IMG/VR virus record: IMGVR_UViG_3300001528_000621
Location: 96,001-160,000 of that record
From: a virus
Lineage: Duplodnaviria > Caudoviricetes
DNA: 64,000 nucleotides
Direction: 5' to 3' (one strand)
A program made the position numbers and the translations under genes. This document shows positions 4,261 to 8,042 of this stretch, piece by piece. Within the stretch, counting starts at the first letter, position 1. Every line of letters starts with the position of its first letter. The notes beneath the pieces are model-generated. The model was not told the DNA's origin. It worked only from the letters and a program-made list of their open reading frames with translations, and did no database searches.

Positions 4261-4464
4261 ATGGGACTAGAGAAAGCAATAGCTTCTGGAAAAGAGCATA
4301 GAAAAGAGTATAAAGGAGCAAAGAGAGTTTCTCGTAGCTGTAGAAACAACGGGGGAGGACATAAACACTCGGAGTGCCCTTACTGTCAATCAAATCGAGA
4401 ACACAATAGTAGAGTTAAAGAAGAGAAAGCCAATTTTGATTTGTCAGAAAATATAGCTATTTAA
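4261..4464 (+). CDS. small basic Cys/His protein (conserved phage hypothetical)
   Basis: LEKAIASGKEHRK...SCRN...CPYC..NR; preceded by a TATCTTTAG promoter. Confidence 0.7.
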   Translation: MGLEKAIASGKEHRKEYKGAKRVSRSCRNNGGGHKHSECPYCQSNREHNSRVKEEKANFDLSENIAI

Positions 4465-4475
4465 CAAAACATACA

Positions 4476-4527
4476 TCAGCAGTTCTGTGACGTATTCCTG
4501 CTGACTAAAAATTAAAACATAAAGTCA
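4476..4527 (+). promoter_or_regulatory. candidate preQ1-I-like riboswitch / structured leader
   Basis: 7-bp stem UCAGCAG/CUGCUGA, loop UUC...UUC, A-rich tail; directly upstream of the porin and yhhQ genes. Confidence 0.4.
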
Positions 4528-5166
4528 ATGAAAAAAATTCTTATTTTAGTGACAGCTCTTCTGCTGTCCATCGGTGCATCCGCACAAACAGATCTTCATT
4601 ATCTTCCAGTTACATTTTCTACGAACGGAACAAGTACGGTTGGAAAGGTATTTACAGCTTTAACTCTCCCTACAGAAAATACCGTAACCTATGTGGAGGT
4701 TCTTAAAACTGTTCAGGATCCAGACTATTACATTCAATTCTTTCACGAACAGAAGTTTTGGGAAGCTCCAATTTACGTGCATGCTGAGTTCCGAGACCAG
4801 AGCTGGTCTGGGTATGGAGAGACAATGCTTATGGTTGGAGGAGCTTTTGACGTCTTTACAAAGAATGGAATGATTGCTTTTGAACCTCTTTTGAGAATAG
4901 ATGGTGAAAAAAGAGATTGGGGTCATTTTCAGCCAATGTTTTCTGTCGTTACGGGACACGATTGGGGTAAATTTAATCTAAATTCATTTTCAGACTTCTG
5001 GTATGATTCAAACTACCTGAATAACGGATTTAATTGGTACTCTGAAGCTTGGGCTTATTTCAAAGTTTGGGAACACTTTCAATTAGGAGCTGTATTTTCT
5101 GCAAGCTATAACGAAAGCGTTAAGTTTTCTGCATCGGTAGCACCAGGATTAAAGATTATATTCTAA
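4528..5166 (+). CDS. outer-membrane beta-barrel, DUF5020/Tsx-like nucleoside channel
   Basis: Signal peptide MKKILILVTALLLSIGASAQ, then Q..LHY, HEQKFWEAPIYVHAEF, FSDFW, alternating aromatic strands and a C-terminal Phe. Confidence 0.65.
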   Translation: MKKILILVTALLLSIGASAQTDLHYLPVTFSTNGTSTVGKVFTALTLPTENTVTYVEVLKTVQDPDYYIQFFHEQKFWEAPIYVHAEFRDQSWSGYGETMLMVGGAFDVFTKNGMIAFEPLLRIDGEKRDWGHFQPMFSVVTGHDWGKFNLNSFSDFWYDSNYLNNGFNWYSEAWAYFKVWEHFQLGAVFSASYNESVKFSASVAPGLKIIF

Positions 5167-5186
5167 TTGTAAAGGATATTTGAAAT

Positions 5187-5915
5187 ATGGGATTTTTGAT
5201 GAGTAACGAGGCTTTGTTCCTTATCCAGCTTATTGTCTCTTTTGCAGGGGTAATATTTGCGTATAAATTTTTCGGAAAGACAGGACTTTTTGTATGGGCA
5301 GGACTAATAACTGTTTATGCTAATCTAGAAGTTAATTCTTTCTTGACAATGTTCGGTCTAGCTGTTAGTCTAGGAAATATTGGATTTTGTAGTCTAAGTT
5401 TTGCTCAAGACATTACGAATGAACAGTACGGTAAAGATGTAGCAAAAAAACTGGTAACGGTAGGACTATTTTCCTCTATTGCAATCCTGGTTGTAAGCCA
5501 GCTTAGTTGTTTCTTCAAATGCGATGGAGGTAACTATGAAGCATTTGAGAGTGTATTTGCAGCATTACTCCCGATACTGGTTTCTAGCTTAACATCATAC
5601 TTCTGCTCTAATAGGTTAAATGTATTTTTGTATAATTGGATTAGACAAAGAACAGATAAAGACTGGATAAAAACTCAAGTTAGTTCTCAGACAGCACAGC
5701 TTTTTGATACAGTGTTCTTTACGTCTCTTTGTGTAGGTTGGGAAATTTTAGCAACAAAGACAGGAGCTGGATTTCTTCATACGTATTTTCCAACAGACTT
5801 TGGAACGTTTGTAGAACTTATTGTAACTTCATATATCATTAAAGCTATAATTGTTCTAGCTGAGATTCCAGGAATGTACTTTATGAGAAAAGTTGGAGCA
5901 CCGAAAGAAGTTTAG
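5187..5915 (+). CDS. yhhQ: queuosine precursor (preQ0/preQ1) transporter, YhhQ/Vut_1 family
   Basis: About 6 TM helices; FGKTGL..W, ANLEV, LGN, DITNEQYGK..AKK.V..G, S..AQLFDTVFF. Confidence 0.85.
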   Translation: MGFLMSNEALFLIQLIVSFAGVIFAYKFFGKTGLFVWAGLITVYANLEVNSFLTMFGLAVSLGNIGFCSLSFAQDITNEQYGKDVAKKLVTVGLFSSIAILVVSQLSCFFKCDGGNYEAFESVFAALLPILVSSLTSYFCSNRLNVFLYNWIRQRTDKDWIKTQVSSQTAQLFDTVFFTSLCVGWEILATKTGAGFLHTYFPTDFGTFVELIVTSYIIKAIIVLAEIPGMYFMRKVGAPKEV

Positions 5916-5966
5916 TCTTTAAAGTTCAATAGAAATTTTTATCTTTAGCTTAGAAATAGAAAAGAT

Positions 5967-6224
5967 ATGAAAAACATACTTTCACTGCCAGATATTCCAT
6001 TCTACAGAAGTACATGCCCGTTTTGCGGCTGTGAATTTGAATATACAGCAGACGAGGCAGATTACTTGGAGTATGACGGTTATGTAGTTGTTTGTCCACA
6101 TTGCTTTAAGACTTTGCGTGTTGAGGATCCAAAACTACAAACACCGTGGAGACACGAACATCCGGAAAGGCCTGGTACATCAAATTTACCTGGGACAGTA
6201 AACATATGGAACAAAGAGTGCTAA
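5967..6224 (+). CDS. small zinc-ribbon protein
   Basis: CPFC...CPHC; has its own TATCTTTAG promoter at 5940. Confidence 0.65.
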   Translation: MKNILSLPDIPFYRSTCPFCGCEFEYTADEADYLEYDGYVVVCPHCFKTLRVEDPKLQTPWRHEHPERPGTSNLPGTVNIWNKEC

Positions 6225-6895
6225 TAACGGGAACATCCCAGGGTATCGGTCTTGCTACAGCTAAAAGGTTTCTAGAAAGATCAGGTACTTTCGTTTTTGG
6301 CTTTGACAAACAACCTTGTCCGGAAGAGCTGGAGGGTCATAAGAGGTACACTCACTTTAATATTTCTGTAACAGATATTGAAGAGTTTGTTATTCTCGAT
6401 AAACTAGATTATGTTATCTGTAATGCAGGTATTCAGACAGCCCCAGAAGCTGGTAATGTAATGATGACAAACTTTTGGGGAGTTGATAACATAATCAGAA
6501 TGTATGCTCTTCAATCTTGCTGCAAAGGCATTGTCATTGTAGGTTCAGTCTCAGGCATAACAGGAGCAGAGTTTGATGAGTATGTAGCAAGTAAAGGAGC
6601 TCTTATACCGTACACAAAAGCTATAGCTAATAAAGTAGCTCAGTGGGGAGGAGTTTGCAACTGCATTGCACCTGGAGGAGTAATGACAGAACTCAATGAA
6701 CCGGTAATGGACAATCCAAAGCTCTGGGATAGAATAATGAACCTGACACCTCTCAAACGTTGGGCAGAACCTTCAGAGATAGCAGATTGGATTTATTTTC
6801 TAGCTACTCAAAGGTTCTGTACAGGACAGACTATTATCGTTGATGGAGGAGAATCAATCAAATCTAACTTTGTTTGGCCTTCATTAGAGTTTTAA
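6206..6895 (+). CDS. short-chain dehydrogenase/reductase (SDR)
   Basis: TGTSQGIG Rossmann motif, NAG, catalytic S..YVASK, PGGV.T, TGQ.I.VDGG; start moved to the ATG at 6206. Confidence 0.92.
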   Translation: MEQRVLITGTSQGIGLATAKRFLERSGTFVFGFDKQPCPEELEGHKRYTHFNISVTDIEEFVILDKLDYVICNAGIQTAPEAGNVMMTNFWGVDNIIRMYALQSCCKGIVIVGSVSGITGAEFDEYVASKGALIPYTKAIANKVAQWGGVCNCIAPGGVMTELNEPVMDNPKLWDRIMNLTPLKRWAEPSEIADWIYFLATQRFCTGQTIIVDGGESIKSNFVWPSLEF

Positions 6896-7034: not shown

Positions 7035-8042
7035 ATGCAATATTCTCTGGATGAGTACACCTTAATTCCCAAAAGGATATCTAAAATTAGTTCTAGAAGA
7101 GATGTTCAGGTTCTTGACGATAATGGGAAGCTTCCTGTGTTTGTAGCTCCTATGACTTGTATTTTAGACAGAAACAATTTTAGTACTTTCAATAAATCTC
7201 CTTTCATTCCGGTTTATCCGGTCTGGGCTGGTGAAAATCTTGCTTCAAGACAAGTAGTACCGGGTTGGGTAGCTGTTACTCTTAAGGAGTTTGAAGAGCA
7301 ATTTGTACCTGATGAAGGGTGGTTGAGGGACCGTAAACCTCACAAAATCTTGATAGACTGTGCAAACGGTCATATGGAAAAGATTTATGATTTAGTTAGG
7401 AAAGCTAAAGCTCGCCCGGGCAACGCAGGGTTGGAAGTAATGGTAGGTAATATAGCTAACCCAGAGACATACAAAGATTGCTGCATGGCCGGAATAGACT
7501 ATGTTAGAGTAGGTATTGGAGGAGGTTCTGGATGCACAACCTCTGTTCAGACAGGTTTTCATGCTGGGATGGGATGGCTTTTAACTGAAATAGAGTATTA
7601 CAGAAGAGATATTAAGAATAACTGGAAGTTTCAAGAACCGATGACAATTACAAAGGTTGTTGCTGATGGGGGAATTAACACTATCTCAAAAGCTGTAAAA
7701 GCCCTAGCTCTGGGTGCTGACTATGTGATGATGGGTAAAATCTTTGCTCAATGTGAAGAAGCTTGTGCATTGAAAATTTCAGAGGAACAACCCTTCAGAC
7801 AGTACTACGGACAGGCGTCAGAGCAGGGACAAATAGATAGGTTTGGAGAAGTGAGGAATAACCCGGAAGGTCTAGAAACTCTCGTACACATAGAACATAC
7901 TTTGGATTCCCTTGCAACTAAGTTTAAGGATGTACTAGCCAGTGCGTGTTCGTACGCTGGAGCTTCAAACTTAAAAGAATTTATTGGACAGGTGAGGTGG
8001 GACGTTATTTCAAAATCAGAATTTAATTCGTTTAACAAATAG
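7035..8042 (+). CDS. GMP reductase / IMP dehydrogenase family (no CBS domains)
   Basis: APM, ID.ANGH, MVGNIA, VRVGIGGGSGCTT, ADGGI, ALALGADYVMMG, SYAGA. Confidence 0.9.
   Translation: MQYSLDEYTLIPKRISKISSRRDVQVLDDNGKLPVFVAPMTCILDRNNFSTFNKSPFIPVYPVWAGENLASRQVVPGWVAVTLKEFEEQFVPDEGWLRDRKPHKILIDCANGHMEKIYDLVRKAKARPGNAGLEVMVGNIANPETYKDCCMAGIDYVRVGIGGGSGCTTSVQTGFHAGMGWLLTEIEYYRRDIKNNWKFQEPMTITKVVADGGINTISKAVKALALGADYVMMGKIFAQCEEACALKISEEQPFRQYYGQASEQGQIDRFGEVRNNPEGLETLVHIEHTLDSLATKFKDVLASACSYAGASNLKEFIGQVRWDVISKSEFNSFNK

Follow-up and report, generated by a model that had tools for sequence, protein, structure and literature searches.

A candidate riboswitch related to the class I preQ1 riboswitches precedes a putative queuosine-precursor import module in large phages and Bacteroidales

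Positions 4476-4527 of the window (the whole 64,000-nt stretch of phage DNA analysed here, taken from a complete 187.8-kb virus record with direct terminal repeats) likely form the aptamer of a riboswitch related to the class I preQ1 riboswitches, putatively acting as a translational OFF switch. The leader is probably an enlarged structural variant of the preQ1-I kind that controls translation independently of a Shine-Dalgarno sequence.

The leader abuts the start codon of a 212-codon ORF

Long ORFs in the phage DNA lie almost all on the + strand, and the leader occupies the region, free of ATG, between the stop codon of a 67-codon ORF (4462-4464) and a 212-codon ORF whose ATG (4528-4530) follows an A-rich tail. 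Read along the + strand, it begins with the 5' strand of helix P1, UCAGCAG (4476-4482), which pairs with the P1 3' strand CUGCUGA (4498-4504); this helix is apparent on reading the sequence, in the predicted fold and in covariation. The P1 strands enclose a 15-nt hairpin loop, TTCTGTGACGTATTC (4483-4497), made up of L1 (UUCUG, 4483-4487), the 5' strand of a second helix, P2 (UGAC, 4488-4491), and L2 (GUAUUC, 4492-4497), whose last base, C4497, is the candidate specificity base according to the comparison of variants. Downstream of P1 comes L3, an A-rich 19-nt linker (4505-4523) that contains AAAUUAAAACAUAAA, recognised by comparison with leaders from metagenome-assembled genomes (MAGs), and that ends in A. 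The P2 3' strand, GUCA (4524-4527), was assigned as the partner of 4488-4491 by the covariation test described below and abuts the start codon on its 5' side.

The minimum free energy structure of the leader is the P1 hairpin. The stability of this 29-mer gave a z-score of -2.05, with 6 of 200 shuffles equally good, and a z-score of -0.88 when the hairpin was placed in an 81-nt context. Taken alone, the P1 hairpin is thus marginal and within chance, and it is the comparison with relatives that settles the case. The site does not resemble an intrinsic terminator, having a 15-nt loop, an A-rich tail and no U tract, and a terminator scan made no call there. No convincing Bacteroidetes -7 promoter box was found upstream of the phage copy.

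Both helices covary among relatives

Structure was compared across 18 distinct leader variants, in alignments that were small (11-13 rows each) and whose members are related. Across relatives, 98.7% of the cells of the 7-bp P1 pair, with compensatory changes at five of the seven pairs; none of 500 shuffles reached the observed pairing, and slid registers gave at most 62%. The loop-proximal A-U and G-C pairs are invariant. Pairing is kept in variants that include UCAGCAG/CUGCUGA, ACAGCAG/CUGCUGU, UACGGAG/CUCCGUA, GGCGGAG/CUCCGCC, AGGAGAG/CUCUCCU and AGCGAAG/CUUCGCU.

For the 4-bp P2, the register joins the four loop bases preceding the 6-nt L2 to the tetranucleotide immediately downstream of the conserved ...AYAAA. 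We tested this helix by covariation in the fixed register; a test for any 4-bp helix between loop and tail was undiscriminating (94% observed versus 54% in shuffles). In the fixed register, 98.1% of cells pair in relatives, compensatory changes occur at three of the four pairs and one position shows five pair types, whereas 0 of 500 shuffles were as good and slid registers reached at most 54%. The helix reads UGAC/GUCA in the window and in contigs L002 and L030, UGAC/GUUA in L044, GCUU/GAGC in L004 and L046, GCCU/GGGC in the MAGs, GUCU/GGAC in L047 and GACU/GGUC in L075; in L034 it is GGAC/AUCC, which forms 3 bp plus a C.A mismatch. The RNA can be assigned to the + strand because the U.G wobbles would read as C.A on the opposite strand. 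As judged from covariation, the loop of the P1 hairpin therefore pairs with the 3' tail, which is the H-type pseudoknot of preQ1-I.

These results bear on an earlier, sequence-only reading of the same DNA. That reading had correctly located P1, the 15-nt loop, the A-rich tail, the ATG, TGACT (4502-4506), AGTCA (4523-4527) and C4497, and the covariation that it proposed to seek in homologous leaders was found in both helices. Neither of its two further pairings survived the comparison. The pseudoknot it had drawn between UGUG and CAUA is unpaired in relatives, Bacteroidales MAGs having UAGG opposite CAUA, and the supported P2 is 4488-4491/4524-4527 instead; the alternative hairpin UGACU/AGUCA occurs only in the window phage and its 98% twin and is absent from L002, L030 and L044.

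Counterparts of the preQ1-I ligand-pocket nucleotides are conserved in a leader not recognised by Rfam

Three elements are invariant in all 18 variants: the closing G-C pair of P1 is directly followed by UUC, the loop finishes with UC where it meets the P1 3' strand, and the final L3 base before P2 is A. The consensus line of RF00522 has the same UUC start and UC end together with an A-rich tail. All main-type members have a 6-nt L2 of the form GUNWUC. Solved structures of preQ1-I show preQ1 contacted by the U, C and A at these positions, with the C as the Watson-Crick specificity base (PMC10622847); the corresponding nucleotides of the leader, the U that opens L1, the C that closes L2 and the A that closes L3, are all invariant. 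Conservation of L3 extends to a 16-mer, AAATTAAAACATAAAG, that is identical in the window phage and in Bacteroidales MAGs, while the barrel proteins encoded downstream are only ~38% identical.

The leader is large for a preQ1-I aptamer. Minimal aptamers of this class measure about 30-36 nt, and those of types I and II have a short L1 and an L3 of about 6-8 nt, whereas the window aptamer has 52 nt, with an L1 of 5 nt and an L3 of 19 nt; in relatives L1 is 5-6 nt, the loop 15-17 nt and L3 19-23 nt. Two points raised by the sequence-only reading are borne out here: the GUUC..C signature of the loop (closing G-C pair, UUC and terminal C) is kept in every variant, and loop and tail are longer than canonical.

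The Rfam preQ1 models, which that reading had suggested as a check, failed to recognise the window site. At gathering thresholds, Rfam 15 reported nothing anywhere in the window, and at E values up to 10 no preQ1 model was reported on 4400-4600, including RF01054 (preQ1-II) and RF02680 (preQ1-III); the latter two were also absent at six related loci at E up to 10. RF00522, whose gathering threshold is 39 bits, was applied to all 187.8 kb of the record with E values up to 10 and produced five junk matches elsewhere and none at the site; it had no match to the MAG, L004 and L030 versions. By the curated RF00522 model, then, the window site is not a recognised preQ1-I member. A covariance model built from MAG and metagenome sequences only, with none from the phage group of the window (R1), nevertheless scores the window site with 28.5 bits (E 3e-4), and with a broader model (R2) the window site is the only true match in the phage genome.

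A second R2 match in the phage, at 25 bits, was rejected as a false positive, being the T-arm of a tRNA gene. This probable tRNA gene lies outside the window (G000:C1:~86640-86715; L079:1455-1530), and its T-arm, GGAGTTCGAGTCTCC, is followed by an A-rich stretch.

The leader precedes a three-gene module

The first gene under putative control of the leader (4528-5166, + strand) encodes a protein of 212 aa with a signal peptide and a C-terminal Phe, predicted from its structure to be an outer-membrane 12-stranded beta-barrel. It has no Pfam or NCBIfam match. The AlphaFold model has a pLDDT of 91.3 and in structural comparison is most similar to the nucleoside channel Tsx (TM 0.68), then to NanC (TM 0.62); KdgM is also among the matches. 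Beginning 20 nt behind the barrel gene, a second gene (5187-5915, + strand) encodes a YhhQ/Vut_1 queuosine-precursor transporter, with matches to PF02592 (7e-27) and to TIGR00697 (115.7 bits versus a cut-off of 50.95). The third, at 6146-6895 on the + strand, encodes an SDR oxidoreductase identified by profile matches, which also follows the barrel and transporter genes in MAGs and in other phage and metagenome contigs.

Barrel, Vut_1/YhhQ and SDR make up a conserved three-gene module in MAGs and large phages (4528-6895 in the window; L031, L034, L036, L043 and L044), in the order barrel-YhhQ-SDR or YhhQ-barrel-SDR. As expected of a preQ1-I association with queuosine genes, a Vut_1 gene is present at every locus long enough to show one. 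The transporters of the phage and of L034 pass the TIGR00697 equivalog cut-off, and the YhhQ-like protein of most MAGs scores 31-33 bits, under that cut-off. Since the MAG transporters score below the cut-off and an SDR belongs to the module, the compound that is transported or sensed could be another deazapurine or a related heterocycle. No TGT/DpdA, QueC, QueD or QueF was found in the phage.

A GMP-reductase/IMPDH-like protein is encoded at 7035-8042, adjoining the import module; the related 162-kb contig L002 has a gene of the GMP-reductase/IMPDH family on the upstream side of the module instead. The window also encodes, shortly before this region, at 1774-2751, a Stealth-family protein (CR2, CR4) of the capsule-type hexose-1-phosphoryltransferase family.

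The leader is shared by phages and Bacteroidales

Leaders of this kind were found in three groups of related uncultured phages, in several short metagenome contigs and in at least seven MAGs, six of them labelled Bacteroidales, where they either head the barrel-YhhQ(-SDR) module or stand immediately 5' of YhhQ. Three close homologues of the barrel are each followed by a Vut_1 gene, and a profile search returned 50 cluster representatives. The closer YhhQ homologues, at 65-74% identity, come from phage-like contigs that either lack the barrel gene or are arranged YhhQ-barrel-SDR. A scan of one genome per species yielded seven loci, six in MAGs with Bacteroidales labels (Cryptobacteroides, Rikenellaceae, 'Bacteroides sp.' and unclassified Bacteroidales) and one in a MAG labelled Anaeromicropila. 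At the MAG loci examined (L031, L034 and L036), the order is leader, barrel, Vut_1-like gene, SDR. All of the loci with barrel or YhhQ homologues described here, in phage-like contigs and MAGs alike, have a leader of this type.

The Anaeromicropila-labelled MAG (L034, CAYPEJ010000017.1) carries the barrel-YhhQ-SDR module as well as the leader. Anaeromicropila is a Firmicutes genus, and the presence of an outer-membrane barrel together with the leader suggests that this contig is mis-binned or derived from Bacteroidales. The other six MAG loci (L031-L033 and L035-L037) share a TAnnTTTG box, TATATTTG, which matches the Bacteroidetes -7 promoter consensus and is separated from P1 by 10 nt (L031:1060-1095 and the corresponding positions). 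In these six MAGs the aptamer is probably where transcription starts. No TAnnTTTG box is present in L034.

Pattern scanning of JGI metagenomes gave 29 matches, of which six were true, and contributed one further variant; P1 was 7 bp in all six true matches, compared with at most 4 bp in the 23 chance matches. In IMG/VR, the ten matches of a first DNA pattern scan and the single match of a second all arose by chance. No match was obtained by blastn against INPHARED phages, and protein-seeded locus searches (barrel, YhhQ) of IMG/VR and JGI metagenomes gave no confirmed loci. Applied to 151 Bacteroidales genomes, R2 recovered only the seed genome among 35 candidates that were scored out of thousands of first-look candidates, a result that says little on distribution.

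Related phages carry tandem copies with two kinds of expression platform

The window and most relatives have 0-3 nt between the end of the P2 3' strand and the AUG. The ORFs of the window show no excess of upstream Shine-Dalgarno 4-mers (12 of 63, versus a background of 24%) and have A-rich leaders, which fits a Bacteroidota-type host. The earlier proposal of a preQ1-I-like aptamer over a start site lacking a Shine-Dalgarno sequence stands in its essentials, with a covarying H-type pseudoknot, the hallmark nucleotides, YhhQ in the operon and no Shine-Dalgarno enrichment, but it had mis-assigned P2. The accompanying idea of a phage riboswitch adapted to Bacteroidota agrees with the lack of enrichment in the window; the RNA is not, however, a phage invention, as Bacteroidales MAGs have the same RNA and operon.

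In one set of related phages (L020-L029 and L043), two aptamers are arranged in tandem before yhhQ (L020:2305-2503). The upstream copy, A, is near-canonical and aligns to the full length of RF00522 with a score of 20 bits (E 0.056 in a search of 236 nt), which is below threshold. Copy A is followed by a strong hairpin and a U9 tract, that is, a terminator. When the nascent transcript is folded, ACAGC and GUGUC in the copy A tail pair with the 5' half of the terminator, so that the P2 3' strand of copy A, CAGC, becomes part of an antiterminator, and blocking the P2 strands weakens the predicted antiterminator from -22.6 to -16.1 kcal/mol. As modelled by folding, the layout of copy A is that of the classic transcriptional OFF design. 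The downstream copy, B, is of the long translational form; for its P2, the candidates UUAG/CUAA and AGUU/AACU fit equally well because those sequences do not vary.

As in preQ1-I riboswitches, the P2 3' strand is thus found either at the translation start or within an antiterminator. Two kinds of expression platform are a riboswitch hallmark, and the use of both by one aptamer family, always on the same transporter module, is riboswitch-like. The L020-type contigs also have an ORF of the NUMOD3-like (homing-endonuclease-like) kind just after yhhQ.

Discussion

From the layout of the leader and the identity of its conserved nucleotides, we infer a mode of action in which a 7-deazaguanine, most likely preQ1 or preQ0, would bind at the junction of P1 and P2. 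The cytosine that ends L2 would pair with the ligand in Watson-Crick fashion, assisted by the first uridine of L1 and the last adenine of L3. Binding would lock P2 and allow the A-rich L3 to dock along P1, withdrawing the region from -23 to -1, which a Bacteroidota ribosome would need unstructured and A-rich. Translation of the barrel would then stop, probably along with expression of the closely following YhhQ, and the genes would be OFF when the precursor is plentiful. The phage would carry the switch together with the import module under its control.

A genuine riboswitch of the same fold might recognise a different ligand, such as queuine or queuosine, another 7-deazapurine, a pterin, or a substrate or product of the SDR, and would then be a specificity variant or a new class. 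The enlarged loops, the failure of RF00522 to detect the leader, the constant presence of an SDR and a dedicated Tsx-like outer-membrane channel in the module, and the divergent Vut_1 proteins of the MAGs, which fall below the TIGR00697 cut-off, all point in this direction. We consider it unlikely nonetheless, given that the three nucleotides with preQ1-contacting roles (PMC10622847) keep their positions and are invariant, that the phage and L034 transporters score above the queuosine-precursor equivalog cut-off and that related phages carry a near-canonical preQ1-I copy in tandem with the long form. In a specific form of this proposal, which we likewise regard as doubtful, the enlarged aptamer would be a distinct sensor of another 7-deazapurine or related compound, the true cargo of an unrecognised two-membrane import module (Tsx-like barrel, divergent Vut_1 and SDR), and large Bacteroidales phages would carry the sensor so as to import the compound only when the infected cell runs short of it. 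If true, this would provide a case of natural riboswitch control of translation wholly without a Shine-Dalgarno sequence.

The leader could also be structured yet respond to no ligand, serving as a constitutive translational attenuator, a site for a protein or sRNA, or an element of mRNA stability or processing. Pseudoknots at start sites can act constitutively, and the very high conservation of L3 could reflect binding of a protein or of ribosomal S1; the arrangement and the invariant nucleotides mirror a known ligand pocket, however, the element stays with one metabolic transporter through different gene orders and a terminator/antiterminator version exists, which together make a ligand-free role improbable. 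The marginal advantage of the hairpin over shuffles and its position 12 nt past the stop codon might suggest a chance structure, or a terminator that ends the upstream 67-codon ORF. This reading is very improbable and is already contradicted by the comparative data: both helices covary across hosts and phages, and the MAG element comes after a TAnnTTTG promoter box and not a gene end. In addition, there is no U tract and the terminator scan is silent.

The reading that we favor, an enlarged riboswitch of the preQ1-I kind, has several implications. The preQ1-I fold would tolerate sizes of P1, L1 and L3 far above those provided for in the database model, and current annotation would consequently undercount such leaders. 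For bacteria that initiate translation without Shine-Dalgarno pairing, the leader offers a clean test case of the way in which a pseudoknot stabilised by its ligand would block initiation. It also flags the outer-membrane channel, YhhQ and SDR as an uncharacterised module of queuosine-precursor traffic in the gut, one that large phages carry as an auxiliary function. Riboswitches are rare in phage genomes, where McCown et al. (2017, PMC5473149) found only a handful. For the Bacteroidaceae, Sun et al. (2013, PMC3766115) reported only two riboswitch regulogs and none for preQ1, and they described preQ1 riboswitches as mostly limited to Firmicutes. In a survey of transporters for queuosine precursors (PMC11130926), neither such a leader nor an outer-membrane partner is mentioned.

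Comparison with known preQ1-I riboswitches

No catalogued preQ1-I type has the combination of features seen in the leader. Its closest counterpart in overall plan is type II (RF00522; B. subtilis queC and T. tengcongensis), with which it shares the order P1-L1-P2-L2-P1'-L3-P2', UUC after the closing G-C pair, a final C of L2 before the P1 3' strand and an A-rich L3 ending in A. In both, the P2 3' strand is placed at the translation start or in the antiterminator, and both are found on queuosine-precursor genes. At 6 nt, L2 also has the length found in the B. subtilis aptamer. The differences from type II are largely ones of size, the leader having a P1 of 7 bp versus 5, an L1 of 5-6 nt versus 2, an L3 of 19-23 nt with the conserved AAAUUAAAACAUAAA versus about 6-8 nt, and a total of about 52 nt versus 33-34; in addition, its P2 is without a Shine-Dalgarno sequence and RF00522 is blind to it.

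Type III, the yhhQ leader of E. coli and Shigella (PMC10622847), resembles the leader in gene context and in mode of control, since both sit before yhhQ and type III acts on translation, as proposed here. Type III has an unusually short pyrimidine-rich loop with an L2 of 3 nt, and its Shine-Dalgarno sequence contacts the ligand (PMC10622847), whereas the loop of the leader, at 15-17 nt, is longer than that of any catalogued type and no Shine-Dalgarno sequence is present. Both have a longer, variable A-rich 3' tail that joins P1 to the expression platform (PMC10622847), and since type III has such a tail, the long L3 of the leader is not foreign to the class.
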